From positions 9,971-73,970 of the forward strand of contig CAVVMJ010000007.1 of the NCBI GenBank assembly GCA_963749445.1: a DNA stretch of 64,000 bases, read 5' to 3'. Source of the DNA: an uncultured bacterium (GTDB lineage: Bacteria > Patescibacteriota > Doudnabacteria > UBA920). Both the position numbers and the translations under genes were made by a program. Positions 1,069 through 48,692 of the stretch are shown here, in pieces (the first letter of the stretch is position 1; each line of letters opens with the position of its first letter). The notes under the pieces were generated by a model, which saw only the letters and a program-made list of their open reading frames with translations, did no database searches and was not told the DNA's origin.

Positions 1069-1797
1069 TTGAGCCGCAGACGTGCACGGCGTTTCCCGTG
1101 CGGGCACCTTAACAATCGAGAAAACCAAATGTTAAAACTAACGTCTGACCCGGTTCGGACCATGGGTCCGAACAATCACTCGGTTGTGATTGGCGTTACG
1201 ATTATCGGCGACAGAAGAACGCCGGTGGTGAACGCAGACGTGCTCCTAAAGCTGGACTCACGAGATTGGGGCACACGAAAGACAAACCGTAATGGCCAAA
1301 TCGAACCGACGGAAGTGACTGCCATCCCCGATGGCAGTTTCAATGGCAACGGCAAACTGACGGTGGAGGCAATCCGCGTCGGCGCACCGGGGGATATGGA
1401 TCGCAAGATTATTGACATCCCAATGCCTCAACCCAAACCCGAACCCGCGGCAGTGGAAAGCATTGCCGTGACCAACGCGACTGAAGGCATTGTCTTGTGC
1501 TCCGGTTTCAACGGAACGCTCGAGATCGCCTTAGGGTTTGAGCAGGGAAAGAAGTCTCGCCCTGTCAGACTGAAAGTTTCGGCCGACCACAGGGTAGATT
1601 TTGCCAACGATAAAACGGGCACGCCTTTAGGCGCGAACGTAAAGTCGTGCGCGGCAACTACTTCGGCAGACGGAGTGCTCCGTCTGCGCGTCAACTTCCT
1701 GGCCTGCGGTCGGGACGAAGTCGAGATCAAAGTATCGGTCCCGAACTCGTCCAAAACTGCTACCGCCAAACTCAAATACAAAATGTTCGAAACTTAG
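1069..1797 (+). CDS. hypothetical protein, first gene of the GC-rich island (true start probably ATG 1129 or 1162)
   Basis: 242-aa ORF at about 60% GC against AT-rich flanks. No recognisable domain. The first codon of the ORF is TTG. Confidence 0.45.
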   Translation: MSRRRARRFPCGHLNNRENQMLKLTSDPVRTMGPNNHSVVIGVTIIGDRRTPVVNADVLLKLDSRDWGTRKTNRNGQIEPTEVTAIPDGSFNGNGKLTVEAIRVGAPGDMDRKIIDIPMPQPKPEPAAVESIAVTNATEGIVLCSGFNGTLEIALGFEQGKKSRPVRLKVSADHRVDFANDKTGTPLGANVKSCAATTSADGVLRLRVNFLACGRDEVEIKVSVPNSSKTATAKLKYKMFET

Positions 1798-1810
1798 GAG
1801 AGATAGACTG

Positions 1811-2788
1811 ATGACTCGTCACACACCCACATCCGCTGCACCGCCGCCGGCACCACCCGTGGCAACCGCACCGGCACCCCTCGCACCCGCAGTCATCCCG
1901 GCACAGGCACCCCTCGCACCCGCCACAATTCCGATCCCGGGAGGACACCACCTTAGCGACAAAACTTTGGTGACACTCGACATCCTCGTTGGAATCATCA
2001 CCGCTCTGTTCGGCCACGAAATCGGCCGCCAAGCGGGAAAGTGGTTCCAGGGAGCCAAACGCGGCTTGCAACAGATCGGTACGCCCGGGACAGCAACCGG
2101 GGTCACCATCTCAGGCAACGCACCCGCTCACATCGACCCCACCATCCATAGCGCCCTCCTAGGCATTGGACCGTGGGACGAAGCCGCCACTGGCATGACG
2201 CTGGGTGCTGCTTTCCGGCGGGCATTTCAACGCTTGTTGGAAGCAACCGGCACGCCAATGGAAGCGCCCATCCGCGCCGCGCTTGCCCAGCTGGAACAGA
2301 CTGTCGGCTTCATCGCCAACAAGCTCAACCAGCACCAGCGCGACTTCCTCCGCGAAGTCGTCGGCAAGCTCAAGACGGCTGAACTCCAGAACCTCTTCTG
2401 GCAGGACTTGGTCCTCGCCAGCAAGGACGAAACCGGTTTCATAAACTTTATGAAGGCAATGGGGATCGTCCACGAGCCGAACGAACTCACCCAGGAACTC
2501 GCGATTGCTATTGCCTATGGTTTCGAGCAGGCGAATGTGATCCGGGTCCAAATGGTGACCACGCTCACAGTTCGCTACGACGCCCGTTCCGACGCTGCCA
2601 GACAGCGCTGGTTCACCGCACATGGGCAACTCGCTCAAGGGCAGCCCGTTCAACAAAACGCGACGCCGTTCTGGCGCCGCCGCACGATATGGCTCGTCAT
2701 TGGACTGGCCATTCTGGCAGTGGCTCTATTTCTAGGCCTGCCCCACATCTACCTCAACCTTCGAAATTGGGAATGGAGTTGGAAATGA
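1811..2788 (+). CDS. hypothetical Pro/Ala-rich protein with C-terminal transmembrane anchor
   Basis: GGAG 8 nt upstream of the ATG. N-terminal PAPP/APLAP repeats and a C-terminal hydrophobic helix (IWLVIGLAILAVALFLGL). Confidence 0.55.
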   Translation: MTRHTPTSAAPPPAPPVATAPAPLAPAVIPAQAPLAPATIPIPGGHHLSDKTLVTLDILVGIITALFGHEIGRQAGKWFQGAKRGLQQIGTPGTATGVTISGNAPAHIDPTIHSALLGIGPWDEAATGMTLGAAFRRAFQRLLEATGTPMEAPIRAALAQLEQTVGFIANKLNQHQRDFLREVVGKLKTAELQNLFWQDLVLASKDETGFINFMKAMGIVHEPNELTQELAIAIAYGFEQANVIRVQMVTTLTVRYDARSDAARQRWFTAHGQLAQGQPVQQNATPFWRRRTIWLVIGLAILAVALFLGLPHIYLNLRNWEWSWK

Positions 2789-4197
2789 CGAATCTAGGAA
2801 GAATCGGAAGGTCGATCGGCACAATGGTGTCCGGTCTGGAAGCGAGGATTTTGGGCTGGATTAGCGCTCATGTCTCGCTAACGCCGCGCGCCTTCGGCAC
2901 GTGGCTTGACGAACACAATTTCATCCGGCTGGAAAACGGCGCGCCTGTCACGGACTACGCCGGTTTCTTCCGCTGGACACGCAACTCGCTCCTGTCCCTG
3001 ATGGCACTGACTTTATTGCTCGAAGCCTACACCATAGTCATCGGGACATTCAACAACACCCCGCTCGGCCTCGGCATAAGCTTAGGTTTCGGTGTGGCAG
3101 TGTTCGGCATCGCGTCGGTGGTCTGGATTTGGAGGACCATCGGCCGCGTCAACGAAGGCTTGGCCTGGATTTTCACTCTGGCCACTGCCACCCTTGCCCT
3201 AATTGGCTTAGGGACTCCGACTTACCAGTACTACGCCGCGGGGAACCTCGCCAAACTTTCGGCAAAAGATATCCAAAATCTGATCGCGGCAGGCATTCCG
3301 CGAATCTGGGCTATGGCGGGCTTTTGCCTGCTCAGCCTGATCGTTCTTCCGCTTACCTGGATGACCACTCTGGGGCCCGCCCTGCTGTCCCTGGCTTTCG
3401 CCAAGACGGCAGAAGGTCTGGAAACGGCGTGGACAGAAATCCGGAAAATATTCTCGCACGATAGGGAAGTAGCGGAAGCCGCTGCGGAAAACCTCCGCAA
3501 GCGGACAGAAACACAGACCGGCCTGCTCATGCTCACATGGGCGATCCTGGCGCTGTTTACTCTCTCTATTATTCTCTCGTCCACGGTCTGGGGGCCTTTC
3601 GGCGGCTTGGTCATCGGTATGACCGCAATCGTGCCGGTATGGATACGACGGTGGAATATGTTCTTGGGAACTTTCTTAACCAAGGCACTCTACGGCGTAG
3701 CCACAGGAGGGCTGATCTTTATCTGCTTCCTGTACGGCCTTTCACTCTCGGCCTTGATGCTGATTCCCGACCAAATTTCGCTCAACGCACTGCTAGTAAT
3801 CAAGTGGGCCAGCTTCCTAATCGGTCTCGCTTCGGCAGTTGGAGTGTTGTTTACCTCCACCACGGCCAGCAAACAGAACGAACTGGAAGCCGGCATGGGG
3901 GAAATTCAGCCCTACACCAGAAAGGTCACGGGTTTCGGGACTGATGGGCAGCCGATTTTTGAAGCTGTTCACCCCAAACCGACGTCCTTCGCCTGGGTCA
4001 AGCCCACGGTCTTCGGTGCTGTTGTCATCGCTCTGGTTGCCTATGTGCACTACAACGGCAACCCGCTTTCCGGCACCAGCCCGCTCAAGCTGGTCGCTTA
4101 CACAATGGTTGTCGGCTTGATCCTTATTCTCTTTGGGATCTTTTCCGGCGGCAAGACGCAAGCCACCCCTACACAGGAGGTGCGCCATGACCACTAG
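2785..4197 (+). CDS. hypothetical polytopic membrane protein (at least 10 predicted TM helices)
   Basis: ATGA start/stop overlap with the upstream gene and GGAG upstream. Long hydrophobic segments throughout. The longer track ORF from 2689 would overlap the previous gene by 100 nt. Confidence 0.5.
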   Translation: MTNLGRIGRSIGTMVSGLEARILGWISAHVSLTPRAFGTWLDEHNFIRLENGAPVTDYAGFFRWTRNSLLSLMALTLLLEAYTIVIGTFNNTPLGLGISLGFGVAVFGIASVVWIWRTIGRVNEGLAWIFTLATATLALIGLGTPTYQYYAAGNLAKLSAKDIQNLIAAGIPRIWAMAGFCLLSLIVLPLTWMTTLGPALLSLAFAKTAEGLETAWTEIRKIFSHDREVAEAAAENLRKRTETQTGLLMLTWAILALFTLSIILSSTVWGPFGGLVIGMTAIVPVWIRRWNMFLGTFLTKALYGVATGGLIFICFLYGLSLSALMLIPDQISLNALLVIKWASFLIGLASAVGVLFTSTTASKQNELEAGMGEIQPYTRKVTGFGTDGQPIFEAVHPKPTSFAWVKPTVFGAVVIALVAYVHYNGNPLSGTSPLKLVAYTMVVGLILILFGIFSGGKTQATPTQEVRHDH

Positions 4198-4771
4198 GAA
4201 AAAGTGCATCGTCATCGGCACTTTAATCGTCGGCGCAGCAGCCGCTGTGCTCCTCGGCTATTACGTAGGCATTGGCAAGTACGCGCCCAGCGAACAGGCG
4301 GCCTACAACCGCCTTCACGCGGCGAACAACTGGGAGTTTGAGGGGAAAACAAGCGATGTTGAAGACAAGCAAGTTCCCCTCGCCGACAAGGTTGCTCAAG
4401 TCAACGTCCTAGCCGTGCAAAAACGCACTCTGGACGCGCAAATCGGCCACCCGGAGCTGACCAACTGCCGGACGCAACCCGGCAAGGACAAGGACGGCAA
4501 GCCAATACTGGTGTCCGAGCCGTGCCCCGGCGGCGTCTCCGCGGCAATCTACAGGGGCAAAGAGGCCGTCATAACGGTCCAGCTCCTAACTTACAGCAAC
4601 GACGAACTCCCGCTCAATGTCGCACCGACCCTCGTCGGCGACGAGCAACTCGGTGGGACAGCAGTACCCCTGGGCAACAACCGGTTCCGCGTGTCGGGAC
4701 TGGTGTATGACCAGGAAAAAATCGCCGGCGGATACAAGATTCGCGTTACGCCGGAAGGAGGAGGAAACTAA
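4185..4771 (+). CDS. hypothetical membrane-anchored protein (N-terminal TM, extracytoplasmic domain)
   Basis: GGAGG upstream. The ATG overlaps the upstream stop by 11 nt. MTTRKKCIVIGTLIVGAAAAVLLGYYV signal-anchor. Confidence 0.5.
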
Positions 4772-5060: not shown

Positions 5061-5765
5061 TTAATTAGTTGTCTGGGTTGTAGTGCCCCGCTGTAAAATG
5101 TCGGAGGTCGTTAAGGTGGAGGTAATAATCGTAACAATGGAGTAAGCCAAAATTACCACTACCAAACCGACAATCGCGTTAATCAAAGCTTTTTTGCCTT
5201 TTTCCGACTGCTCCTCATTGCCCGCGGACGTAATGTACCAAAACCCGCCGACAATTAACGCGACCACCGCTATCAATCCGGAAAGAATCAATAAATACTT
5301 TATAACGACAAAAATCAAATCCACCAAGGTTCCCGCGCCTGCCGGGCTGCCGGCAGTATAAGTATTTGCCGGTACGCAAAAGCCGTTGATTTGCACCAGT
5401 CGGCTGTCGCCGCAAGGGCCACTCACCGTGGAAGGGATGGTTGGATTTAAGTTCACTCCTCCGCTATTTTGATACGCAGTACAAACCGGATCGTTCGGGT
5501 AGCTGTTGCAACAAGCTAACCCGGTTAAGCCCGAAGAGGCGCAGTCAACTTGCTTTGGCCCGACAATTCCGCCGGCAACGCAGGCACTTCCTGAATAAGT
5601 GCATCCCACTGTATTTGCGCACTGGATCGGATCAGCAATACCGGTACAATTATCGGCTTTAGCCAACAAAGGCCCACATGCCAAAAAACTAAAGGCCAAA
5701 GCAAAAACTGCAAAAAACACAAGTCCTGTCAGTTTATCAAATTGCAATTTGCTATTTTTTTTCAT
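5061..5765 (-). CDS. secreted Cys-rich surface protein with C-terminal VirB2/TrbC-like two-helix pilin module (paralog 1)
   Basis: Signal peptide and 16 Cys in the ectodomain. C-terminal motif IVGGFWYITSAGNEEQSEKGKKALINAIVGLVVVILAYSIV is shared with five neighbouring ORFs. Confidence 0.6.
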   Translation of the reverse strand: MKKNSKLQFDKLTGLVFFAVFALAFSFLACGPLLAKADNCTGIADPIQCANTVGCTYSGSACVAGGIVGPKQVDCASSGLTGLACCNSYPNDPVCTAYQNSGGVNLNPTIPSTVSGPCGDSRLVQINGFCVPANTYTAGSPAGAGTLVDLIFVVIKYLLILSGLIAVVALIVGGFWYITSAGNEEQSEKGKKALINAIVGLVVVILAYSIVTIITSTLTTSDILQRGTTTQTTN

Positions 5766-5774
5766 CGCGAAAAT

Positions 5775-6173
5775 TTAAACCCCGAGCCCGCCGGTAATGG
5801 TATTTTCAATGACCGTAATAATTGTATAAGCCAAAATAATAATCACAATGCCGATAATGGCATTGATTAAAGTTTTTTTGCCTTTTTCCGACTGCTCCTC
5901 GTTGCCGGACGCGGTAATGTAATAGTACCCGCCGATAATAATGAACAGCACGGCAATGGCGCCGGCAAACAGCAGCATCAGCTTAATGACATCATAAATC
6001 AAATGCGGCAAATCCGGCTCCTGGGACAGCCCGCCGATGCCGAACAAATCCCTTAAACCGCCTATGCCGGTCAGCCCCTGGCCGACCGCGCTGGTCTGGG
6101 CAAAAACCATAGCCGGCAAAAATAGCAAAGCGGAAGATATCCAGGCAAATATTTTTTTGACTGTTTGTTTCAT
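5775..6173 (-). CDS. VirB2/TrbC-like pilin-family protein (paralog 2, minimal form)
   Basis: Signal peptide followed by IIGGYYYITASGNEEQSEKGKKTLINAIIGIVIIILAYTII. Confidence 0.6.
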   Translation of the reverse strand: MKQTVKKIFAWISSALLFLPAMVFAQTSAVGQGLTGIGGLRDLFGIGGLSQEPDLPHLIYDVIKLMLLFAGAIAVLFIIIGGYYYITASGNEEQSEKGKKTLINAIIGIVIIILAYTIITVIENTITGGLGV

Positions 6174-6214
6174 AAGATTGTGCTTCTAATTATTAAAAGT
6201 TAATTAAACACCAA

Positions 6215-6392
6215 TCAGAATGTCGGAATGTCGAATTAATCGGAGGGGTCATTTCCAAAATTTTTCCAATTTGTTATTAACCGATTAATTTGTTCAGAAA
6301 CTAAGACCAATCTTTATTGCCTGTATACGTCCAACTACCCGACCTCCGATATTCTGATTTATCCGATTATTCCGACTTCTGATTCCAAACTC
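6215..6392. repeat. MITE-like intergenic repeat module with about 17-bp terminal inverted repeats (AATCAGAATGTCGGAAT / ATTCCGACTTCTGATT)
   Basis: The internal 150 bp is homologous to 7947-8030 plus 8345-8470. Related fragments (GATTTATCCGA, ATTCCGAC) also occur at 930-990. Confidence 0.45.
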
Positions 6393-6548
6393 AGGGGCAG
6401 AACCAGTTCCGCCCGAGAGCCCGGAGCCGAAATTTTCGGCCGACCGTTTAGTGTCATTGCGAGGAGGCCGGGGCTTTGTCCGGCCGACGCGGCAATCCCT
6501 TCTTTTGATAAGATTGCTTCGGCTGCTACTGCAATGACACTAAATTTT

Positions 6549-6941
6549 TTAGCTGGATGACTTGGAAACCAAACCGGCCACCACGTTAACGATTACGTAG
6601 GACAAAAGAATAATGACAATACCGATAATGGCGTTAATGGCCGTGTTCTTGCCTTTTTCCGCGGTTTCCTCATTGCCGGCGGAGGTAATGTACCAGAAGC
6701 CGCCAATGATTAAGAACAACACGGCAATACCAAAGGCGATCCCTAGGAGCCAATTGATGATATTTTTAATCAACGCGTTAGCATCGGTAGTGCCGCAGTT
6801 TAATCCGGTTCCGGAGCAGTTAGGAGCGGTCAGCTGCGCCTGTCCAAAATGCAATGGGACAAACACAAAAATCGCCACCAACACCAGCTCAGCGACCACT
6901 AACCAATTGATTTTCTTGATTATTTGTTTCAAGCTGTTCAC
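6549..6941 (-). CDS. VirB2/TrbC-like pilin-family protein (paralog 3)
   Basis: Signal peptide, CSGTGLNCG ectodomain, then IIGGFWYITSAGNEETAEKGKNTAINAIIGIVIILLSYVIV. Confidence 0.6.
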   Translation of the reverse strand: MNSLKQIIKKINWLVVAELVLVAIFVFVPLHFGQAQLTAPNCSGTGLNCGTTDANALIKNIINWLLGIAFGIAVLFLIIGGFWYITSAGNEETAEKGKNTAINAIIGIVIILLSYVIVNVVAGLVSKSSS

Positions 6942-7061
6942 CCCCTCTCGTTTCCCTTTCCCTCTCCCTCGGGGAGAGGGCAGGGTGAGGGTTAATTTGC
7001 TGACATTATTATACTACGATTCCTAATTTTTGGCCATCTCTATCTTTTTGGCACACGGTTG

Positions 7062-7946
7062 TCATCTCGGGCTCGGCCCAGGCGTAGGATAGGTTAAATT
7101 CTTATTGGTGGCTTGGCCGCAAACAAAAGTTTGCACCTCCTGCCCGGGCTGTATGGGTTTCTGGGAAGCCATGGCCACGGCCCAGCCGCTTGCGTTTTGC
7201 GTATAGTTTGATTGCATATAATCCGCGCCGTCAACTTTTACGGTAAAAGAGATAGGACTTACATCGCCACATATCATCGCAATCTGTGCCAATAAATCTC
7301 TTTCGCCAGTAGAAATTGTGGAATTCACTAACAGGCCGGGATTTTTGGGCGTAATGACAATATTGTCCCCCAAATAATTTTTATTGGTGCTCCTAGCATT
7401 ACTGACATCCTGTAAACTGATGCCCGCGAACATCGGGTTGGAATAAGCATTGCCTCCTTGCGTACCCGCGACCGCCGGATTGGTGTTGGTATTAGCCGAC
7501 GGATTAGTTACTGCCGGGGTATTGCCATTGCCGGTACTGCCCCCGGTCAACCCGCTGGTTAGCAAATTAACCGTGATGCGGACTATGGCATAAGCCATAA
7601 TAATTACGACCAAACCGATAATCGCGCTGGTAATGGCCTTGCGGCCTTTTTCGGATTGCTCCTCGTTGCCCGCGGCCGTCAGGTACCAAAAACCGCCCAA
7701 AATTATGAACACTACGGCCACCAAGGCGGCAAATTCCAGCAATAACTGGATAACATTGCCCACGGCCTGCTGGGGCGTACATAGTTTGGGGAGGCCTTCA
7801 ATGGTATTTACCGGTTTGCCGTTAACGGTAATTTGAAACTGGCCAAAAAACTTGTTGCAATCAAATTGCGCCGACGCCGGCATGGCCAACAGCCAGCTGA
7901 AAAGGATTATCACCAGAAAAAATTGAAGCTTATGCGTTTTCTTCAT
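7062..7946 (-). CDS. VirB2/TrbC-like pilin-family protein with 170-aa C-terminal extension (paralog 4)
   Basis: Signal peptide. The conserved module ILGGFWYLTAAGNEEQSEKGRKAITSAIIGLVVIIMAYAIV is in the N-terminal half, followed by a Gly/Asn/Thr-rich linker and a C-terminal domain. Confidence 0.55.
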   Translation of the reverse strand: MKKTHKLQFFLVIILFSWLLAMPASAQFDCNKFFGQFQITVNGKPVNTIEGLPKLCTPQQAVGNVIQLLLEFAALVAVVFIILGGFWYLTAAGNEEQSEKGRKAITSAIIGLVVIIMAYAIVRITVNLLTSGLTGGSTGNGNTPAVTNPSANTNTNPAVAGTQGGNAYSNPMFAGISLQDVSNARSTNKNYLGDNIVITPKNPGLLVNSTISTGERDLLAQIAMICGDVSPISFTVKVDGADYMQSNYTQNASGWAVAMASQKPIQPGQEVQTFVCGQATNKNLTYPTPGPSPR

Positions 7947-7965
7947 AATTTTTCGGAAAATCGGA

Positions 7966-8307
7966 TTAATCGGAATTATCGGATCTGAAATTCTTCCAAT
8001 TGGTTATTAGTCGATTAATTTGCTTGGATACTATTTTATAGTGCTTGATTAGTGCTTCGCAGGTTTCGGGTTTAATATTCGGGAAACCAATGAGTTTAAT
8101 TTGTCTTAGATGGGTTATAACTTCATCCGAAGATCCCAACGCAATCCGCAAGTAACGCTTGAATTCTTTTTCCGAATTTCGTTTGGCAAAACCTTCGGTA
8201 ATTTGCGCCGGAACTCCTTTTGCCGCGCCCGTTAACTGGTCTTTTGTCCGAAACTCATTTTTTGGCAACAAATCTGCTAACCGGTAAATCGGCCTAATCA
8301 ACTTCAT
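7966..8307 (-). CDS. four-helix-bundle protein (23S rRNA IVS protein family)
   Basis: The sequence ...GAAKGVPAQITEGFAKRNSEKEFKRYLRIALGSSDEVITHLRQ... matches the four-helix-bundle family. The gene sits inside copy 2 of the repeat module. Confidence 0.55.
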   Translation of the reverse strand: MKLIRPIYRLADLLPKNEFRTKDQLTGAAKGVPAQITEGFAKRNSEKEFKRYLRIALGSSDEVITHLRQIKLIGFPNIKPETCEALIKHYKIVSKQINRLITNWKNFRSDNSD

Positions 8308-8394
8308 TGACCTTCTGATAAACCTCTAAATCCTCAACATCCTTTATCATAATTAAAAAATTAAGACCGGTTTTTATTGCCTATATCCATCCAA

Positions 8395-9978
8395 CTATCC
8401 GACCTCCGATTTATCCGACATTCCGACATTCCGACATTCCGACATTCCGACATTCCGATTTATCCGAATCATACTCGTACTCTGGCTGACGTTTTGGATT
8501 TGCGTCTGCAAAATATATTGGACAATGGCAATGATGCTAAAGGACAGCAAAGCAATGGCTAAACCCAAAATGGCCCAGGTGATGGTCTTGCGCGCGGCCG
8601 TGACCGCCTCTTCGTTGCCCTGGGACATGACGTAGCGGAAGCCACCGATGACTATAAAAGCCACGGACCACAAAGCAATGACGCCCAAAAAGGCGCGCAT
8701 TATCAACAGCAAAGTCGCAGTCAAAGAATCCACGGGCAGGGGGTTATATAAACAATTGTTGGCATCGGGACCGGTACAATTAGCGGTGGAAGGAGTGCCG
8801 GCGGCAGAACATGTCCCTCCCGTGGCGGCTGAACATATCTGCCCGGAACTGCAAGTCCCCTGCTGCCCGGGACCTCCGGTACAAGAAGCACCAGGCGCGA
8901 CAGCCGCGGTCGGACTTACAGTAATATTAAAAGTAGTCGGTCCAACCCCATTTAACGCTGTGGTTCCGTCAGCGGCCACCGGAGTCGCGACAATTGAATT
9001 AACGCCGCTAATATTAAAACCGGAGTTTGCGTCCAAGGTAAAATTTTGGCTCCATTGTTTTGAACTGTCAAGTTTTACATCTTGATTACCCGCGTGCACC
9101 AATAAAATGCCGCCACTGGGCATATTGGTGGCAGAAATTGTTATGGTAGTTCCGGGCGCATAAGTACTATTGGCCGCAGGCGGCGATAAAACAACCGTCG
9201 GCGCGTTACCACTTGCGCCTGTGGCCTGAGTTAAAGTATAAGTTTGATCATAAATTCCCTTGCCGCTACTATCAGTCAGGACAAATCTTAACTTGTTATC
9301 CCCATTGCTAATAAATCCATTTGTGGCATTTACCGCTATTTGGTTGCCGCCTGAGTATATTGCAACAAAGTGATTATTATCGTTGACATAAATGTTTCCC
9401 TGCGCACCGGGCGGAAAATCTGTATAAGTAATTTTTAAGGTATCGCCAATTTTAGCGGTAGGCGGTGAAACTGTAAAGTTAAACCCCTCTCCTAAAGGAT
9501 TATTAGAAACATTTAGCTGTTTTCCCCAATTTTTTGTATCTCCCAAGTCACCCAAACTTGAATGAACATCCAAATAGTAAGGAAAAATGTAATCTGACCC
9601 TGACTTGGTAACATCACTCCAACGGGAAAAATTTGATAAATTAAAAGGGCAGTCAATATTAACATTGTTAGGAACAGGCGGGCTGACCTGGCACCTGGCC
9701 AAATACCAAGGGCTACCACTGATAGGGGCAATAAAATCAAACTCCATGATATTATTGGCACTACAGCCGTTTGTATTAACTATGGTATTAAATTTTGCCG
9801 AATCGCCTTTATAAATTCTGGTTGGAACTGCCTCCATAGAGGTAATTTGCACCTGGCAAATTCCTGCGGCTATTGCAGATTTTATGAATCCACGCCCAAA
9901 AACCCCGGCCAGCATCAATAAAATTATGACGCTGCTTTTTAGTGCGCTTAATATTTTATTGTACTTGTTCTGCGTCAT
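8395..9978 (-). CDS. large secreted surface protein with C-terminal VirB2/TrbC-like pilin module (paralog 5). The 3' end reads through the octamer repeat
   Basis: Signal peptide, about 400-aa beta-rich ectodomain, Cys/Gly-rich linker, then FIVIGGFRYVMSQGNEEAVTAARKTITWAILGLAIALLSFSII. The last 30 or so aa are encoded by the repeat module. Confidence 0.55.
   Translation of the reverse strand: MTQNKYNKILSALKSSVIILLMLAGVFGRGFIKSAIAAGICQVQITSMEAVPTRIYKGDSAKFNTIVNTNGCSANNIMEFDFIAPISGSPWYLARCQVSPPVPNNVNIDCPFNLSNFSRWSDVTKSGSDYIFPYYLDVHSSLGDLGDTKNWGKQLNVSNNPLGEGFNFTVSPPTAKIGDTLKITYTDFPPGAQGNIYVNDNNHFVAIYSGGNQIAVNATNGFISNGDNKLRFVLTDSSGKGIYDQTYTLTQATGASGNAPTVVLSPPAANSTYAPGTTITISATNMPSGGILLVHAGNQDVKLDSSKQWSQNFTLDANSGFNISGVNSIVATPVAADGTTALNGVGPTTFNITVSPTAAVAPGASCTGGPGQQGTCSSGQICSAATGGTCSAAGTPSTANCTGPDANNCLYNPLPVDSLTATLLLIMRAFLGVIALWSVAFIVIGGFRYVMSQGNEEAVTAARKTITWAILGLAIALLSFSIIAIVQYILQTQIQNVSQSTSMIRINRNVGMSECRNVGMSDKSEVG
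8415..8454. repeat. octanucleotide microsatellite (CCGACATT)x5
   Basis: Five perfect tandem units. Translated on the minus strand they form the C-terminal tail (RNVGMSECRNVGMS) of ORF 8395..9978. Confidence 0.9.
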
Positions 9979-9990
9979 ACTTTTTGATTT

Positions 9991-10485
9991 TTACTTCCCT
10001 GCCGGCGCGATGCCTTCTTCCACGTTATAGGAATTTGGGACGCAGGTATAACTGCTCGGGTTGGTCAAAGTAATGTAAGTCCACGGACTGGCAAAATCAA
10101 TTTTGCATTTGGACATTAATAGAATATTAACTGCGGTATTGACGAACATATACGCGGCCACGACCACAAAAAATCCTATGAATACCTGGGTTAACGCTCC
10201 CTTGTGTTTGGTAATGTCCTCCTCGTTGCCGCTGCTCGCCACCAGCCAAAAAGAATGTTCAACAATCTTGTAAACCGCGTAAAGCCCGGCCATGGCTATC
10301 AGCCAGTTGGTCACCCGCGCCACCCCGTAAAAAGCGTCCAAAACTCCGCAGGGATGATTATCCGTCGGCCCGCTGCCGCCGCAGGGAACTAGTCCAGCGG
10401 CATGGACGAAAAATGGCATAGAAAAAGCTATTGTTATTGTTAAGATTACCGCAACTAAAAGCCTTTTTTGTTTCAAGATAATCAT
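9991..10485 (-). CDS. VirB2/TrbC-like pilin-family protein (paralog 6, divergent)
   Basis: Signal peptide, CGGSGPTDNHPCG, then LVASSGNEEDITKHKGALTQVFIGFFVVVAAYMFV. Confidence 0.5.
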   Translation of the reverse strand: MIILKQKRLLVAVILTITIAFSMPFFVHAAGLVPCGGSGPTDNHPCGVLDAFYGVARVTNWLIAMAGLYAVYKIVEHSFWLVASSGNEEDITKHKGALTQVFIGFFVVVAAYMFVNTAVNILLMSKCKIDFASPWTYITLTNPSSYTCVPNSYNVEEGIAPAGK

Positions 10486-10540
10486 TTTTCTACAATAACT
10501 CTACCACATTTTTGGCAAATTTTCAATTTTTGTCGCTTTG

Positions 10541-10622
10541 TTGAAATTGCGAGGGCGTGCATCCGACCGAAGCAATCCCCAAAAAATAACCGGATTGCTC
10601 CGGCCACCCTCGCAATTTCATA
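10541..10622. repeat. palindromic repeat element, copy A (GAAATTGCGAGGG...CCCTCGCAATTTC)
   Basis: Terminal inverted arms plus an inner GAAGCAATCC/GGATTGCT pair. Three longer copies lie at 28142, 43438 and 48535. Confidence 0.6.
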
Positions 10623-10727: not shown

Positions 10728-12024
10728 TCACTGCCCCGCAGTGATTGCGGCCGCTTGTTGTTCGGCTTGACTAAGCGAATCCTGCGCGCTCAACCCGTTT
10801 AAAATTACGTTATCAATCGCCTTGCCGAAAATGTTGTCCATCTTGGCCTGGTCCGGGCGGTAAAAAGATTTAGCGGTAAGGTTGGCGTTGGCAAACACGC
10901 CGATGTCCGGGTCCGGAATTTGCAGCTCAATAAGGTCGCGGCGCGAAGACGGCACTTTGTTTTGCGCGTAATATTGGTCCAGGCTGTCCTTGCTCGTTAA
11001 AAATTTTACCAAATCCCAGGCTGCGGCCAGTTCTTACTCTGTTTGCTCACCACCTCTCCCCAGTAGTTGGCAAAATTCACGGATGGGTTATTCAAATCCG
11101 GCTGCGGCACGCCGGCCACGTCAAAATTCAAATTGGGAGATTTTTGTAAGATGGTGGCGCGACTATAGGAATAGCTGTACAAAAACGCGGCGCGGCCGTT
11201 GGCAAAAGCGTCAATGGAATAATCGCTTTGGGCGTTCCAGTTGTAATTAGGGCTGGAAGGATTGGCAAAAGATGTGTAAAAACTCAAAGCACTGACTCCG
11301 GGATTGGTAAAATTGCCGTTTTTCTGAACCGGGTCGGCAAAAGTCGGCTGCATGCCGGTATAAGGCATGGTGCCCTGCTGCAGCATCATCAAATACAAAA
11401 TATCCACCGCGCGATTGACATTGGCGTTAGTACCTAATGCTACGCCGCTTTGCAAAAAATAACCGTGGCTGTCCTGCCGCTTGATTTTCTGCACATCCGT
11501 TGCCAGCTCGCTCCAGGTCTTCGGCGGCGTGGCAATCCCCGCGCTGCCCATCATATCCTTGTTATAATACAGCGCCAAAGAATCCACGGACATGGCCGCG
11601 CCGTAAATTTTTCCTGGCTGGTAAAATCGTTGACCACCGCGTCCACAAAGGTATCCTTAAAATCCTTCAAAGTAAAAATGGAAGCCGGCGAAGGCGTGGC
11701 TTTGTCCAAATACTGCGGCAGCCAGGCGTTGTTGATGGAAAAAATATCCGGCCCGTTGCCTGCGGCCAAAGCGTTCAGCAAATCCTGCTGGTAAGTGTTA
11801 ATGTCTTTTTTGGTGTAGACGATGGTAATATTGGGATTTTTTTGGCGGTAAGCGTCGAGCAGCGGCTGCAGGCTTTGGCTGTCCATAAACGGATTCCACA
11901 TGGTCAGGGTAATATTCCGCTGAACCGTAGTTGTCCCTCCCCCGCCGCATCCCGCCGCAAGCAAACTAAGGCCGATGGCGGATAAAAGCAATTTTGGTTT
12001 GAAAAATTTTCTTTTTGGTTTCAT
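10728..12024 (-). pseudogene. ABC transporter substrate-binding lipoprotein (sugar-binding family) disrupted by two frameshifts
   Basis: Three consecutive minus-strand ORFs (11551..12024, 11006..11593, 10728..11012) translate to one SBP with a lipobox LAAGC. One frameshift is in the AAAAATTT run near 11588 and one is near 11010. Confidence 0.55.
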
Positions 12025-13125: not shown

Positions 13126-14631
13126 TTATTCCGTCTTCGGGCGGTACTGAATGGCTTCGGACAGATGTTTGATGATGATATTCTCGCTGCCGTCCAAGTC
13201 GGCTATGGTGCGGCTAACTTTGAGTAGGCGGTGCATGCTGCGGCCGGAAAAATTGTAGCGTTGCATGGCGGTTTTCATCAGCTGCTGGCCGGCCTGGTCC
13301 AGCCGGCAAAATTCCTTCAGCTCCACCAAGCTCATTTCGCTGTTGGTCTTGGCGCGGCCATAACGCGCGGTTTGGATTTCCCGTGTGCGCTCCACGCGCA
13401 GTTTAATATCGGCTGATTTTTCACCGGCTTCAGGCTGCGACATTTTATCGTAAGAAAGGCGCGGCACTTCCACGTGCAAATCAATGCGGTCAAGCAATGG
13501 ACCGGAAATTTTTTTCTGGTATTTAAAAATCTGCCCGGGGGTGCAGGCGCACGGCTTGCTGCCGTCGCCCAAATAGCCGCACGGGCAGGGATTCTGCGCC
13601 GCTATTAGAGTAAACTTGGCCGGAAAAGTAAAACTGCCCGAGGCGCGCGCCACAGTGACCACGCCGTCTTCCAACGGTTGCCGCAGCGCTTCCAAAACAT
13701 TGCGCGGAAATTCCGGAAATTCATCCAAAAATAAAATTCCCCGATGGGATAACGTCACTTCCCCGGGTTTAGGGTTGGCGCCGCCGCCCACCAACGCCAC
13801 GTTGGAAGTAGTGTGGTGCGGGCTGCGCACCGGCCGGCTGGCCACAAACGAACCGGTTAGCTTTCCCGCAATGCTGTAAATTTTGGTCAGCTCCAAAGCC
13901 TCTTCCAAAGCCAAATCCGGCAACAGGCCGGCCATGGCGCGGGCCAGCAAAGTCTTGCCGCTGCCCGGCGGGCCCGAAAGCAGCACATTATGCCCGCCAG
14001 CGGCCGCGATTTCCAGCGCCCGCTTGGCCAGTTCCTGCCCGGCAATATCGCTCATGTCCAAAGCCGGCGCGGGATTAATTAAAATTTTCTCCAAATCAAT
14101 AGGCGGCTGTTTGGTCAAATTGCCGCTGCCTAACAAATGCTCCAATAACCCTTTCAGGTGGGCCACCGGAAAAATTTTCAGTCCACTAACCAGCGCCGCT
14201 TCCCGGGAATTTTCCCGGGGCACAAAAATTTCCTTAAACCCCAATTCTTTGGCCCTAAGCGCCGCGGCCAAAACCCCGGGCACCGGCCTGACCTGTCCGT
14301 CCAGGGACAATTCTCCCAAAAACAGTTTACCTTTGCCGTCAAAACTGATTTGCTCCGAGGCCGACAAAATCGCCAAGGCAATCGGCAAATCAAACTGCGT
14401 GCCCAACTTTGGCACGTCGGCCGGCGCCAAATTCACGGACACGCGCGTCGGCGGATAAAAACAGCCGGAATTTTTTATCGCCGCCTTGACGCGCTCGCGG
14501 CTTTCCTGCACCGCCGTATCCGCCAGCCCCACGACAACCGTAGCCGGAAGTCCGTTAGTAATGTCAGCTTCCGTTTCCACCAATTCCGCGCCCAAGCCCA
14601 CCACGGCCGCGGAATAAATTCGCGCGATCAT
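13126..14631 (-). CDS. comM: YifB/ComM family Mg-chelatase-like ATPase
   Basis: Lon-like N-domain. Walker A GPPGSGKT, LFLDEFPEF, C-terminal CPCGYLGD...C Zn motif and Mg-chelatase C-terminus. Confidence 0.8.
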   Translation of the reverse strand: MIARIYSAAVVGLGAELVETEADITNGLPATVVVGLADTAVQESRERVKAAIKNSGCFYPPTRVSVNLAPADVPKLGTQFDLPIALAILSASEQISFDGKGKLFLGELSLDGQVRPVPGVLAAALRAKELGFKEIFVPRENSREAALVSGLKIFPVAHLKGLLEHLLGSGNLTKQPPIDLEKILINPAPALDMSDIAGQELAKRALEIAAAGGHNVLLSGPPGSGKTLLARAMAGLLPDLALEEALELTKIYSIAGKLTGSFVASRPVRSPHHTTSNVALVGGGANPKPGEVTLSHRGILFLDEFPEFPRNVLEALRQPLEDGVVTVARASGSFTFPAKFTLIAAQNPCPCGYLGDGSKPCACTPGQIFKYQKKISGPLLDRIDLHVEVPRLSYDKMSQPEAGEKSADIKLRVERTREIQTARYGRAKTNSEMSLVELKEFCRLDQAGQQLMKTAMQRYNFSGRSMHRLLKVSRTIADLDGSENIIIKHLSEAIQYRPKTE

Positions 14632-14706
14632 TTTTGAATGGAATTATGAATCAAAAATTATGAATCATGGGCCAAATCCCCTAATTCTTAATTCCTGATT
14701 CCTGAT

Positions 14707-15150
14707 TCAATCTTTATCCGCAATTCCCTTTTTATTCCAACCGGATGAGAAAAATAAAATAACTATGCCAATAATAATATATCCGTCCGCCAAATTATAA
14801 ACCCCCACCCACTTCCAAAAATGGATATAAATAAAATCCCGGACGTAACCCAAAACCAAGCGCTCGCCGACGTTCAAAGCGGCACCGGTAAAAATCAACA
14901 GCCAGGCCAAACTCTGCCCAAAACTAAATTGCCGAAAGTTTTTTGTACAATAAATTACCATGCCCAAAATTACCACAGCGTAAATTGTAAACATCAATCC
15001 GTTCGGCAGCGGCAGGCTGAACGCGAATTGCCTGTTCAAAAATTGATGGCTGACGATTTTTTTGGAGGCTTGATCAAAAACAATCAACAAAGCAAACAAA
15101 AAAACACCCAGCCCCCAAAAGCTCCTGGATGTTTTTTGAAAATTTTCCAT
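14707..15150 (-). CDS. lspA: lipoprotein signal peptidase II
   Basis: Four TM segments, FDQASKK, NVGERLVLGYVRDFI and NLADGYI motifs. Confidence 0.7.
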   Translation of the reverse strand: MENFQKTSRSFWGLGVFLFALLIVFDQASKKIVSHQFLNRQFAFSLPLPNGLMFTIYAVVILGMVIYCTKNFRQFSFGQSLAWLLIFTGAALNVGERLVLGYVRDFIYIHFWKWVGVYNLADGYIIIGIVILFFSSGWNKKGIADKD

Positions 15151-15284
15151 TCCGGATTCTGAAATGAATGCTTTCCATTTCGACCGAATGCACCTGAGGG
15201 AGAAATCTATTAACTTCTAACTTCGGATATTAACGGATCTCTCCTCGACTGCACTCGTCGAGATGGGAAAAAATATGCTAAGTT

Positions 15285-15638
15285 CTATAATGCCTTATCA
15301 GCCCACGGCATAGCGCGCAAACGGGCTTCGGGTATCTGTTTGCCTTCGTCGTCCGTCCCGTAAGTCCCCTGGCCGATTTTCGCCAAGGCTTTGTCAATTT
15401 TGGCCAAATCCGCCTGCATTACGGCAATCACGTCCTGGCTGGCTTCGTCCACGTTAATTTCCTCGGCATTTTCGTCTTCTTCGTCGCCCATTTCAGTATG
15501 AGCCGAAAGGCCGGCCAAATCATTCTCCAGTTGCCGCTTTTTTTGCAGCAGCTGTTTTTTCATTTCTTCGGTAAAAGATTGCGATAGCATATTTTTTTGA
15601 TTATCTGATGTAATTTCATTATAGCCGATATCCGTCAT
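15285..15638 (-). CDS. DksA/TraR-like protein lacking the Cys4 zinc finger
   Basis: Coiled-coil N-terminus. C-terminal GTYGTDDEGKQIPEARLRAMPWADKAL matches DksA GTYGxCxxCGxxIPxxRLxAxPxA with all Cys replaced. Confidence 0.5.
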   Translation of the reverse strand: MTDIGYNEITSDNQKNMLSQSFTEEMKKQLLQKKRQLENDLAGLSAHTEMGDEEDENAEEINVDEASQDVIAVMQADLAKIDKALAKIGQGTYGTDDEGKQIPEARLRAMPWADKAL

Positions 15639-15656
15639 TTATCAAAACTCTCGGGC

Positions 15657-15860
15657 AGGGCTTACGCATTGGCCAAGTGCGAGGCATTTTGCGAGGATGT
15701 TTGGAGGCGTACTAAAGGTACGACGACAAACACCGCAGCAAAATAACGAAGCAATTGGCCAAAGCCACTTTTTTGGAACCCGGACTTCCTCTGCCAAAAA
15801 ACGGCGGTGCGTAAGTCCTGCCAAAATTGAAAAAGCGCCCCGGTTAGGGGCCGTTTATAA
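15657..15860 (+). ncRNA. candidate structured small RNA with intrinsic terminator (family unknown)
   Basis: 15-bp closing helix GGCAGGGCUUACGCA/UGCGUAAGUCCUGCC, perfect only as plus-strand RNA (one G-U). Nested 8-bp UUGGCCAA helix and GUAC-UAAAG-GUAC hairpin. Then GCCCC-GGUUA-GGGGC stem plus U-rich tract at 15835-15860. Lies in an 850-bp gene-free gap. Confidence 0.3.
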
Positions 15861-16486
15861 AATAAAATGCCCACGCGAGGCGCTTGTAACCCGAAATTAA
15901 TCGGATACGCTTCGCGCAAACGAGTTGCGCAAAGAATACCACACTGTTAATTCCAGGCCTTCCCAACTTTACAGTCGGGAGAAAGCGTCTGAAGTCCAAT
16001 CGCATTTCAAACTGCACTCTAAACTTCTCTTGTGGTAGTTTAACAACTACCTAAAAACTTTGATTGCCTATTTTGGGCAATTAATGCTAATCCATTGGGG
16101 AATAAATTAGCCTACATTTTTGTTTTTGTTTTTCAAACAGCTTAGATTGGAATAAGCTATGACGAGAAGTTTAAAGGAAAATACCCTCAAATATCAAAAT
16201 TAAGAGCAACTTCCTTTAGTTCAGTTTACCTCGACCTTGCGTCGGGGTTTGAAATCAATTTTTAAAGTGCTTTTGTTTCCGAATCTGCTTGAATAACTGT
16301 GTATTTATCATAGCAATGTTTGCCTAAAATGTCAATTACTGACGTCTTTTGTAACTAAACTCCTTTTAAATAAAAGCGATTTAAATTTTGCTGATATAAG
16401 TTGGCTTGCTTTACCGAATTTTTGATTATTTTATCTTTTGGGGATAACCCATATAAACCTTTTAATTATGCCGGGAATAGGAAAAT

Positions 16487-18799
16487 TTAATCACCTTTGG
16501 TCAGCCTAATCCTAAAAAGAGATTTTAAATGGTTCTGATATAATTCCTTATATTTAAAAGCTTTTTTTGCATCTAGAATTATAATTTGTTTCAATTTGGC
16601 TGTATAAAAAAATCGCAGTAAACTTTGAAAGTCATACATGCTCCGCGGCAAGAAAAACTCCCTATCCGGATCAGCAGACTTTTGAGCCAAAGCTTTGCTA
16701 TAAGGATCAGCTACTTTCATACTTGGCCACTGCGAAAAAATGACGGTTTTTGCCTGCAATTGGGCCACCGGCTGGACCTGCTGGACGGAGCGCAAAAAAT
16801 TTAAAACCCCGCTGCTGCTTATTAAAAGCAAGCTGTCTTTATGGATACTGAAATTGCGGAACAGTCTGTTGCTTCCTCCGCCGCTGCGTTCAACCAATAA
16901 AAACGCGCGCTTTTTCAGTTCTCCGTAATATTCTTTGTAAAGCTTCGTAATTTCCGCCGGCGAGTCAAACACCATTACTGCCGGCAAGTCGGCTTTGCTT
17001 AAAATTTTGACGGGATTTGAATCGACGGCCGGCGTAATCCGGCAAATCGGCTGATGATGCAGAATTCCGACTAATTTGCTTCGTAATTTTTTTACCGGCC
17101 ATGGTATCAAAGAAAATTTCCCCATACCGAGGCGATTAATAAAATAGTCGAGCGCGACTTGTTCTCCTTGCGGTTCAATGACGCAAACCTTTTCAAAGCC
17201 TGAAAAACTTTTGCCAACGATGCCGCCAATATCTAGCGGCAAGGAATGGAAACTGCAGGAACGCTCCCCAAAACTTATCCATTTTACTTCCGTAGGCCTA
17301 TCCTCAAAAAAATCCTTGAGGTTACTGGCAAAGTCCGTGAGGCTTTGGAGCTTTAAACTTTGGTTTGCCGATGATAACTTTTCCGTAAAATTTTCCGCGG
17401 CACTCATAATCTTTAAAAATTCTTCGGAATTTCTTAATTCATCCGTTACGCTCACTTCGCCCCAGCCTTTGTTAAATTTTAACAATAGCGCGTTGGTCAA
17501 ACCAAAAAATAAATCCGCGTCCGAAAGCAATCGGCTGATAATATCTCTATATTCGGCATCGCCAAAGCCGGTTTCCGGATCGTAAACGGTTTTTAATAAA
17601 TAAGATAAAAAGCCCCAGCTGCTGCGCTGCCCAATAGTAGCCGTGATTACGGCCTCAAAATCACCAAGACCGATAACAATCAGGCCGCGCTGGCGGAATA
17701 GCTCGGAACTTTTCAATTCTAAAAAAGTTTGCTGGTCGCAACATAACACCCTATCGGGTAATTTCTCCGGCAGTTGCCGGCCTGAAACCAAACCCTGAAA
17801 CTGACCGCCGAAAAATGACAGATTCAAATCCAACAAGCACTCCGTTTGCCAATTTGTGGCCTGCCAAACCAAAAGCTTCATTAAAAACCTAGCCTGCTCC
17901 GGATTTTGGATGTCCTGATGAAGCAGTACTTCAAATTTTTGGCGGTCAAACATATGCCGCGGCTGGAAAATTCCCCGCGCCAAATTTTGCCGCCATGTTT
18001 CCAAAACCTGATAGCGCTTGGGTACCACAATCAGCAGTCGCTCGGCTGTCCGGCTGACAATTTGCCCGATAATATCCTCAACGGGAACAAAAGGGTCAAC
18101 GATGTAAACCGTTTTGTCCTGCATAACAACAGAGCCCAAGCGTGATTTAGCCACTGATATTTTTTTGACTGGTTTGGCTGGCTCTAATTTGTAGGGTTTG
18201 ATTTTTGCTTTTAACAAATCCGACCACGGAGCCTTGACGCGTTCCGCCAGTCCGGTAATCTGGGTCTTAGCTTCGTTGGGCAAACTTTGATAAACGCCGA
18301 GCAGCCGCTCCAGCAACTCCATGGATGCCATGGCGTCCGCCAAAGCGCGGTGCGCGTTTTTGTGCGAAATTTTAAAAATACTCGCCAAATTTTCCAAATT
18401 GTAACTATGATGCGTAGGCAGCAAAAACTGCACCAAGTCCATAGTGTCAATTACCGGCCCGAAAAATTTTATGCCGCACTTTTGCAAAAACTTAATGTCA
18501 AAACCCACGTTATGCCCAACTATCGCCGCCGTCCCCAGCTTCCCCTGCAAAAAAAACAGCTCGTCCGAAATCGCGCCGCCTTTTTCTAGGTCGGCTGATG
18601 TGAGTCCAGTCAGTCCCAAAACATGGTGCGACACCTCGCCCTTTGGCTTAAACACCCTGTCCCATTTTTCAACAATCCGAAATCCGAAATCCGAAATCCG
18701 AAATCCGGCTATCCCCACTTCCAAAATCTCATTGGTTACCGGGTCAAACCCGCTCGTCTCAATATCCAAGCTGTAATAAATTTTTTCTTGATTTGCCAT
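16487..18799 (-). CDS. DnaQ-like 3'-5' exonuclease domain protein with a large C-terminal domain of unknown function
   Basis: DEDDh motifs YYSLDIETSGFDP, GHNVGFDIKFL and HRALADA. No Walker A seen in the 600-aa C-terminal part. Start chosen at MANQEK (18799), which avoids overlap with the upstream gene. The track ORF extends to 18844. Confidence 0.55.
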   Translation of the reverse strand: MANQEKIYYSLDIETSGFDPVTNEILEVGIAGFRISDFGFRIVEKWDRVFKPKGEVSHHVLGLTGLTSADLEKGGAISDELFFLQGKLGTAAIVGHNVGFDIKFLQKCGIKFFGPVIDTMDLVQFLLPTHHSYNLENLASIFKISHKNAHRALADAMASMELLERLLGVYQSLPNEAKTQITGLAERVKAPWSDLLKAKIKPYKLEPAKPVKKISVAKSRLGSVVMQDKTVYIVDPFVPVEDIIGQIVSRTAERLLIVVPKRYQVLETWRQNLARGIFQPRHMFDRQKFEVLLHQDIQNPEQARFLMKLLVWQATNWQTECLLDLNLSFFGGQFQGLVSGRQLPEKLPDRVLCCDQQTFLELKSSELFRQRGLIVIGLGDFEAVITATIGQRSSWGFLSYLLKTVYDPETGFGDAEYRDIISRLLSDADLFFGLTNALLLKFNKGWGEVSVTDELRNSEEFLKIMSAAENFTEKLSSANQSLKLQSLTDFASNLKDFFEDRPTEVKWISFGERSCSFHSLPLDIGGIVGKSFSGFEKVCVIEPQGEQVALDYFINRLGMGKFSLIPWPVKKLRSKLVGILHHQPICRITPAVDSNPVKILSKADLPAVMVFDSPAEITKLYKEYYGELKKRAFLLVERSGGGSNRLFRNFSIHKDSLLLISSSGVLNFLRSVQQVQPVAQLQAKTVIFSQWPSMKVADPYSKALAQKSADPDREFFLPRSMYDFQSLLRFFYTAKLKQIIILDAKKAFKYKELYQNHLKSLFRIRLTKGD
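18675..18708. repeat. heptanucleotide tandem repeat (ATCCGAA)x4 plus partial, inside the exonuclease ORF
   Basis: Encodes GFRISDFGFRI in the N-terminal exonuclease domain. Confidence 0.85.
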
Positions 18800-43402: not shown

Positions 43403-43437
43403 TACAAAATTCAAATTGCAAAACTTAAAACAAGCTG

Positions 43438-48658: not shown

Positions 48659-48692
48659 TTAAAGACTGACTCTACCTATCAAGGAACATTAG

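Follow-up and report, generated by a model that had tools for sequence, protein, structure and literature searches.

What do six tandem genes do that share a signal peptide and a membrane hairpin while the rest of their products is unrelated? The genes lie on the minus strand at positions 5061-10485 of a 64-kb stretch of contig CAVVMJ010000007.1; this stretch is the window throughout, all coordinates not assigned to another locus are positions in it, and the genes are called A to F, or, in slot notation, F(1)-E(2)-D(3)-C(4)-B(5)-A(6). A reading made from the sequence alone had seen in them variable adhesins or pilus tips on a common VirB2/TrbC-like anchor and had left the function of the shared module open. 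That last statement understated the case, as such arrays have been published as part of the Patescibacteria type IV secretion system (T4SS) and are essential in one cultivated species. The six-gene array described here is a new example of that published kind of locus and not a new system. What we add to the published arrays is positional orthology over at least 11 genomes, a contrast between a constrained module and its ectodomains, and uncoupling from virB4.

The host appears to be a member of the Patescibacteria (Candidate Phyla Radiation, CPR) related to "Candidatus Doudnabacteria", the class being a tentative assignment taken from the source names of homologs and syntenic loci. Because the organism belongs to this group, the episymbiont context that the sequence-only reading had raised is plausible.

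Family membership and paralogy of the six genes

All six genes are complete open reading frames (ORFs), and each encodes a signal peptide and a hydrophobic hairpin of two helices, the G-N-E-E turn of which is invariant; this confirms the earlier description (Table 1). They are not strictly consecutive as had been stated, since a gene of the 23S-rRNA-IVP family sits between E and D. The full charged-turn motif GGF/YW/YY..GNEE..EKGK, previously ascribed to all six proteins, is kept in A-D only, and E and F retain G-N-E-E with the flanking pattern.

The proposal that the shared module is a VirB2/TrbC-like pilin holds up against family profiles. All six proteins pass the Pfam gathering cut-off of PF18895 (T4SS_pilin, 26.6 bits) with scores of 28.3-53.8 bits. 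Pilin C also passes that of PF04956 (TrbC/VirB2, 27.9 bits) with 28.9 bits; A, B and D fall below it (17.1, 19.3 and 15.9 bits, respectively), and E and F have no match. The NCBIfam family NF045849, a pilin-like family of Mycoplasma integrative and conjugative elements (ICEs) with a cut-off of 40 bits, is barely reached by A (40.6) and B (40.4), with C, D and E below it (33.3, 27.8 and 21.3 bits) and F unmatched.

Over about 80 aligned residues the modules of the six paralogs are 21-56% identical in protein and 35-63% identical in codon-aligned DNA. Because DNA identity is only this high, A-F are old paralogs and not the identical assembly duplicates that the sequence-only reading had named as one way in which it could be wrong. 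The module repeat is far beyond chance, and at the DNA level a repeat family (D2) has a 34-nt core in six copies that are 64-85% identical.

The published definition of a pilin array is two or more PF18895/PF04956 genes, in tandem or with one non-pilin gene between, and this is the arrangement found here. The locus therefore very probably belongs to the described family of Patescibacteria VirB2-like pilin arrays.

The public gene call for pilin C (P0192) is 116 aa long, and the GTG start used in Table 1 adds 14 N-terminal residues. The longer, 130-aa form is probably correct because homologs share the extra N-terminal residues, K5 and K9 being present in at least 90% of the sequences.

Table 1. 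Genes and sequence features of the pilin array, with the orthologs of the six pilins at locus L003 (GCA_964474825.1)
Feature	Positions	Strand	Evidence	L003 ortholog
Pilin F (slot 1), 164 aa	9991-10485	-	PF18895 30.0 bits; module nt 10099-10365 (hmmsearch)	166 aa; 62% identical
Pilin E (slot 2), 527 aa	8395-9978	-	PF18895 28.3 bits; hairpin nt 8509-8724	465 aa; aligns in module and linker only
Pilin D (slot 3), 294 aa	7062-7946	-	PF18895 38.5 bits; module nt 7551-7808	297 aa; 40% overall, module 75%, extension 27%
Pilin C (slot 4), 130 aa, GTG start	6549-6941	-	PF18895 53.8 bits; module nt 6555-6815	127 aa; 77%, module 90%
Pilin B (slot 5), 132 aa	5775-6173	-	PF18895 51.3 bits; module nt 5790-6038	126 aa; 62% identical
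Pilin A (slot 6), 234 aa	5061-5765	-	PF18895 42.0 bits; module nt 5097-5360	227 aa; 42% overall, module 71%, ectodomain 31%
23S-rRNA-IVP/four-helix-bundle protein, 113 aa, between E and D	7966-8307	-	PF05635 62.9 bits; TIGR02436 69.9 bits	
Tandem octamer (CGGAATGT)n, 3' end of E	8403-8450		encodes RNVGMS-repeat tail	
Internally deleted IVP-cassette copy, C-B intergenic region	6215-6350		repeats D5, D7, I9	
Upstream region of array	10498-10605	-	REP-like hairpin 10568-10605, after solute-binding-protein gene	
Candidate sigma-70-like site	10526-10498	-	TTGAAA-17-TAGAGT with TG; weak	

Topology, ectodomains and positional orthologs

The signal peptides end at A-x-A-like cleavage sites (AKA↓D, VFA↓Q, GQA↓Q, ASA↓Q, AIA↓A and VHA↓A) and are followed in all six proteins by two strongly hydrophobic helices (Kyte-Doolittle means 2.2-2.8). 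AlphaFold2 predicts long antiparallel hairpins, at residues 419-451/456-490 in E and, after a signal helix, at 52-86/91-127 in C. All cysteines of the mature proteins lie in segments predicted to be outside and occur in even numbers (10 in A, 2 in C, 2+2 in D, 10 in E and 2+2 in F); the hairpins of all six proteins are Cys-free, and pilin B has no Cys. This placement and the even numbers fit an out-in-out topology in which both termini and the extra domains are extracytoplasmic.

The ectodomains are unrelated between paralogs, as had been noticed, and those of all six proteins match no Pfam family above threshold. Pilins C and B are minimal, C having a CSGTGLNC loop. Pilin F consists of a short N-terminal Cys pair, the hairpin and a 40-aa C-terminal tail with a second Cys pair. 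Pilin D has a 33-aa N-terminal segment with a Cys pair, the hairpin and a C-terminal extracellular extension, also with a Cys pair; the extension is indeed present, at a length of 162 aa and not the 170 aa first given. The 108-aa disulfide-rich N-terminal ectodomain of pilin A contains 10 of the protein's 11 Cys, fewer than the 16 once counted in it.

The mature N-terminal part of pilin E, earlier described as a beta-rich domain of 400 aa, is 381 aa long. Its beta-rich nature is supported by the AlphaFold2 model (predicted local distance difference test, pLDDT, 73.5), in which three beta-sandwiches are predicted at residues 44-158, 167-251 and 261-314 (about nt 9037-9849), the first two with pLDDT about 90 and the third about 70. 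The linker that had been noted is present as well: residues 324-399 are a disordered Cys/Gly/Thr linker that contains CTGGPGQQGTCSSGQIC, and the hairpin follows at 419-490. A Foldseek search of the PDB for pilin E returned tandem immunoglobulin (Ig)/fibronectin type III (FnIII)/macroglobulin (MG)-like domains with E about 1e-8, among them complement C3 MG domains, Vibrio RbmA, cohesin-FnIII and PECAM. As modelled, the ectodomain would have a generic surface-protein architecture of three tandem Ig-like sandwiches and would not belong to a specific family.

On a 1.21-Mb contig of GCA_964474825.1 (locus L003) all six genes recur in unchanged order as one-to-one orthologs (Table 1), and the two loci have their upstream neighbors in common (RodZ-RecA-exonuclease-LspA-ComM-NTP transferase-solute-binding protein). 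Between them the hairpins are 71-90% identical and the ectodomains 27-31% identical, that is, essentially unalignable; ectodomains thus evolve much faster than the module between orthologs.

An alignment-based scan for relatives, with one genome per species, returned 80 loci with names that are mostly Candidatus Doudnabacteria, "uncultured Candidatus Saccharibacteria" and Patescibacteria group. A hidden Markov model of the module finds 5-8 pilin genes in most of them, and by best module match the slot order is F-E-D-C-B-A in 11 genomes and F-E-x-C-B-A in 17. Slot C of the 11 fully ordered arrays is always 128-141 aa long and is the most conserved, with a median module identity of 79% to the window, and lengths range over 256-471 aa in slot E, 128-422 aa in D and 200-301 aa in A. 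These comparisons indicate that the array is an ordered set of ancient paralogs, the decorated slots of which gain, lose or replace domains. In this lineage it lies between the solute-binding-protein gene and, in relatives, FtsH. The same kind of genome-contig scan with protein E alone as the query found nothing.

Among proteins, pilin E has 42 homolog clusters, all with a precomputed PF18895 label and 289-583 aa long, most of which align over linker and module only (50-72%). For pilin C there are 538 homolog clusters (E <= 1e-5); all 120 matches listed are at least 62% identical and carry the PF18895 label, many have a precomputed PF04956 label as well, and some are named "TrbC/VirB2 family protein". 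The module family as a whole comprises 75,444 cluster representatives at E <= 0.001.

Many members of that family have 2-17 pilin modules in one chain, such as 8 modules in 820 aa or 17 in 1775 aa (proteins P0043-P0191; loci L053 7482-8573, L073 2521-4525 and L085 9599-10660). Such chains are allowed by out-in-out modules, yet a covalent pilin chain is unexpected for a VirB2-type filament. Decorated pilins of the E type (373-451 aa) also occur alone, adjoining FtsZ, at L006 10001-11170 and L007 10001-11122, and similar single-pilin loci are L012, L015, L021, L023, L026, L033 and L036. These lone pilins are followed by a divergent cluster that encodes large proteins of up to 1,707 aa; nine ORFs scanned in L006/L007 gave no Pfam match. 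One genome (contigs L026 and L066) has a main array without slot E and a lone E-type gene elsewhere.

Ratios of nonsynonymous to synonymous substitution rates (dN/dS, Nei-Gojobori) were obtained from close pairs of related arrays, the window's nearest relative being saturated in dS and the other contigs identical to it. They are 0-0.11 in the module; outside it most are 0-0.31, and a single segment of 29 codons reaches 0.66. Since dN/dS is below 1 everywhere, there is no gene-wide positive selection, and the diversifying selection that had been proposed is not shown as a pervasive force; what stands of that proposal is that domains turn over and that in slot E one allele has apparently been replaced. 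This last case concerns the L050 and L051 arrays, four slots of which are 94-99% identical while the slot-E ectodomain is just 69% identical (L050 9620-10408 and L051 9644-10432). The dS of that ectodomain is 1.2, against 0.2 in the adjacent module, which suggests replacement by a divergent allele through recombination. The hairpin is strongly constrained while the ectodomains of E, D and A turn over.

The IVP gene is non-pilin and was probably inserted into the array. The orthologous L003 array does not have it, and E and D overlap there; nor does L003 carry the internally deleted second copy of the IVP cassette. The two copies in the window are related by direct repeats D5 (6223-6303 and 7953-8033, 75%) and D7 (6293-6350 and 8353-8410, 83%), and the octamer tract at the 3' end of E has an inverted match to 6215-6246 (I9, 91%). 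The octamer looks like a terminal repeat of the inserted cassette, which would span 7953-8450. The tail that it gives to pilin E has pLDDT <50, is predicted to be disordered and is missing from the L003 ortholog.

Secretion machinery and competing explanations

Published work ties pilins of this kind to T4SSs. In a search of 3,035 Patescibacteria genomes with PF04956 and PF18895, VirB2-like pilins were found in 1,948 VirB4-positive assemblies, in 1,135 of these 1,948 near virB4, and 441 arrays of 2-11 pilin genes, tandem or with one non-pilin gene between, were found in 383 assemblies (Quinonero-Coronel et al. 2025, PMC12102498). VirB4 itself is present in 2,407 of the 3,035 assemblies in the published data, where one genome of the GTDB class Doudnabacteria is VirB4-positive. 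Southlakia epibionticum ML1 has a predicted pilin series inside the essential T4SS cluster SEML1_0006-0019 (Wang et al. 2023, PMC10633639), and its six-pilin array within that cluster is essential (PMC10633639; PMC12857230); the possibility of a pilus in a monoderm has been raised (PMC12857230).

The T4SS association is reproduced at the level of the family, but not for the lineage of the window. More distant arrays in our set have around them seven VirB4-like ORFs (P-loop_TraG/AAA_10/DUF87), assigned to L064, L070, L071, L074, L076, L057 and L058 by 52-68% identity to the first member of the set, and three ORFs that match TrbL/VirB6; in the two cases measured (L064 and L057) the VirB4-like ORF is about 6 kb from the array. 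Similarity to canonical pilins is weak: a profile search of PDB sequences gave no link to them, hhalign detected no similarity to Agrobacterium VirB2, and tblastn of C against 72,556 plasmids gave one spurious match only.

The explanation that we prefer is as follows. Each protein would be exported by Sec, cleaved after its A-x-A site and stored in the membrane as an out-in-out hairpin, with both termini and the extra domains outside the cell and the G-N-E-E...K-G-K turn toward the cytoplasm, or toward the lumen if polymerised. A monoderm-type (MPF-FATA-like) T4SS, encoded elsewhere in the genome, would extract the hairpins from the membrane and build from them a surface structure, pilus-like or associated with a channel, that makes contact with the host cell. 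The short conserved slots, C and then B and F, would form the body of this structure, with pilin C as the candidate major subunit, and the decorated slots E (three Ig-like sandwiches), D (C-terminal domain) and A (disulfide-rich domain) would present exchangeable host-binding domains. From homology and the published Saccharimonadia data we infer T4SS dependence in this genome, polymerisation, the division of labor among slots and adhesion, and we regard the T4SS-dependent host-contact mechanism as evenly poised between right and wrong. Blended with membership in the array family, the explanation as a whole is the best that we can offer and rather probably correct.

Several observations weigh against it. 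VirB4, VirD4 and VirB6 were not found in the 64-kb window, in which the scan took in all ORFs of at least 500 aa and about 50 ORFs of any length in total; on VirB4 and VirD4 the sequence-only reading was right. Nor does any of the three lie within 10 kb of the six-slot arrays of the relatives scanned, where the 48 large P-loop ORFs in 22 loci are FtsH (27), SMC (16), ComM, FtsK and similar proteins. If each subunit had a domain of 400 aa, a helical filament of the VirB2 type could hardly accommodate it, polypeptides of 2-17 modules fit a membrane-embedded assembly as well as a filament, and the accessible parts of the literature on these proteins report no pilus made of them in any Patescibacterium.

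The main rival is T4SS-independent surface display, in which the hairpin would be a membrane anchor or a small oligomeric membrane assembly that holds variable ectodomains at the cell surface, with neither pilus nor secretion ATPase. In its favor, neither the window nor the Doudnabacteria-like relatives show a T4SS gene linked to the array, the resemblance to canonical VirB2 is weak, and large ectodomains and multi-module proteins sit more easily with a membrane-embedded state. However, the conservation of the hairpin (71-90% identity, dN/dS at most 0.11, an invariant G-N-E-E) is beyond what a passive anchor needs, in three of the six slots there is hardly any ectodomain to present, distant family members adjoin VirB4/VirB6-like genes, and the S. 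epibionticum pilin genes lie inside a T4SS cluster (PMC10633639). On balance we think surface display of this kind unlikely. The cassette-style family suggested at the outset, taken in the sense of shuffling or gene conversion among the six copies, fares much worse. A tandem shared module with differing variable parts could recall antigenic or phase variation by gene conversion, as in Neisseria pilE/pilS, or ectodomains diversified by a retroelement; a gene of the IVP/bAvd family does sit inside the array, and slot E, at 69% in the otherwise 94-99% identical L050 and L051 arrays and with raised dS, has the look of an imported allele. But all six genes are full-length, each with its own start codon and signal peptide. 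Their DNA is too divergent to recombine (35-63% identity, no long identical tracts, a longest shared repeat of 187 nt at 64-70%), and slot order and identity are conserved across many genomes, the genes being ancient positional orthologs. The ORFs scanned include no reverse transcriptase, the window has no pair of template and variable repeats, and the IVP gene, missing from the orthologous array, looks inserted and has a deleted second copy. We consider shuffling, gene conversion and retroelement diversification highly improbable.

Two further explanations can be dealt with briefly. A transcriptome preprint on TM7x (10.1101/2022.03.25.485537) labeled six genes of its T4SS region "putative effector genes" and found three of the six to be induced in stable symbiosis, and the equivalent genes here might by that label be secreted T4SS effectors; yet in every protein of the array the signal peptide is followed by two strongly hydrophobic helices, every one of them fits a pilin family, and the TM7x set has since been re-read as a VirB2 array (PMC12102498), which leaves effectors with very little likelihood. 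An assembly artefact of collapsed or duplicated repeats, for which the repetitive layout is the sole argument, is refuted: the copies differ at 37-65% of nucleotides, identical copies of pilins A and B are present on an independent Logan contig (L001), and the six-gene layout recurs in many independent assemblies.

The preferred T4SS-dependent explanation also has a bolder form, which we put forward as doubtful. E, D and A might be the "missing adhesins" of Patescibacteria T4SSs, one paper on arrays and T4SSs stating, in its accessible part, that no adhesins were detected. They would be hairpins fused to exchangeable Ig-like or disulfide-rich host-binding domains and would act as minor subunits in a heteromeric C/B/F structure, host range would be set by ectodomain replacement (as in slot E of L050 and L051), and in the Doudnabacteria-like lineage the fixed six-slot set would be genetically uncoupled from the genes of the secretion ATPase.

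Surrounding chromosome and comparison with known systems

The remainder of the 64 kb is ordinary chromosome and encodes RecA, FtsK, RodZ, ComM, LspA, a UTP-glucose-1-phosphate uridylyltransferase-like protein, Ddl, MurF, EPSP synthase, IF-2, a P-type ATPase, tRNAs and one type IV (T2SS-G-like) pilin. Promoter and terminator scans gave sites no commoner than in shuffled sequence, and the sigma-70-like candidate ahead of the array (Table 1) is weak. Palindromic intergenic repeats that resemble repetitive extragenic palindromes (REPs) or miniature inverted-repeat transposable elements (MITEs) (CGAAGCAATCCC...GGGATTGC; family D3) are present in four copies, up to 91% identical, at 10568-10605 (just upstream of the pilin array), 28191-28266, 43414-43501 and 48562-48660.

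A GC-rich island of four plus-strand genes at 1069-4771 (53-61% GC against about 47%) is convergent to pilin A. Checked as possible hidden T4SS parts, its genes gave no Pfam, NCBIfam or PHROG match, and with only three relatives in 5.8 billion proteins this is no evidence either way. Three of them have homologs at L027 13420-16580, at the same site between slot A and FtsH, and the 470-aa membrane protein of the island has only two other relatives in 5.8 billion proteins. At the same site L003 carries a different, non-homologous GC-rich four-gene island (14148-16658), and in other relatives FtsH comes directly after slot A. This pattern resembles that of a hot spot for insertions, or of an accessory module that evolves rapidly.

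Some housekeeping genes of the window are apparently split in two ORFs, namely those for the solute-binding protein (11006-12024; intact in L003, 432 aa), D-Ala-D-Ala ligase (38891-40091) and MurF (40110-41571); these are either assembly frameshift errors or cases of pseudogenisation. A 501-aa protein encoded at 52806-54311 (-) has no family match, and by eye its N-terminal part contains a GHKL-ATPase-like motif, LLDNAVSN...GGKGMG. An IS256-family transposase fragment lies at 45832-46446 (+; NF048019, 228 bits).

Patescibacteria, which live attached to other cells, account for much of the uncultivated bacteria, and their T4SS with its pilin array is one of few systems for which essentiality has been shown in a cultivated species. 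The locus gives rise to three testable ideas: that the six genes of the array are ancient paralogs in a set order and not a recent expansion, that a highly conserved short pilin stands beside pilins with swappable surface domains that are candidate determinants of host specificity, and that inheritance of the array can be separate from that of the genes for the secretion ATPase. Findings of this sort could help in choosing, for cultivated relatives, which proteins to tag or deplete and which to take as bait.

Among known systems, the VirB2 paralogs of Anaplasma and of Bartonella/Rickettsiales are likewise tandemly amplified and divergent, occur in host-dependent bacteria and are thought to vary the exposed surface (PMC12102498). 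Those bacteria differ in being diderms with a complete VirB/D4 system, and their paralogs are small, with no fused domains and no ordered six-slot set. VirB2, TrbC and TraA of diderm T4SSs share with the proteins described here a long signal peptide, a hairpin of about 70 residues and a short charged turn, as well as the small size of slots C, B and F, and C passes the TrbC threshold. The array differs from them in its monoderm host, in having no VirB5, VirB1 or VirB7-10 context, in its six paralogs in place of one and in several copies with N- or C-terminal domains of 100-380 aa.

The 80-residue hairpin profile of Mbov_0395/MMCAP2_0565 from Mycoplasma ICEs (NF045849) aligns end to end with the module, and the Mbov_0395 context is monoderm MPF-FATA, a class related to the Patescibacteria VirB4 (PMC12102498). 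Those are single genes on a mobile, DDE-transposase, relaxase-independent ICE, whereas the array here is chromosomal and stands in a housekeeping context.

With the pilin arrays of Patescibacteria the locus has in common PF18895/PF04956 proteins, a tandem arrangement that tolerates one non-pilin gene, a chromosomal location and a CPR genome, and with that of S. epibionticum the number of six genes. Paralog identity is similarly low, at a mean of 25% and a maximum of 54% over whole proteins in the published arrays (PMC12102498) and 21-56% over the module here, the whole-protein identity of A-F being lower than the module figure as the ectodomains do not align. The accessible parts of the published array papers do not describe large fused ectodomains, such as three of the slots here carry, positional orthology of slots or a context of solute-binding protein, array and FtsH. 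The present array also differs in that it is not near virB4 and adjoins a solute-binding-protein gene.

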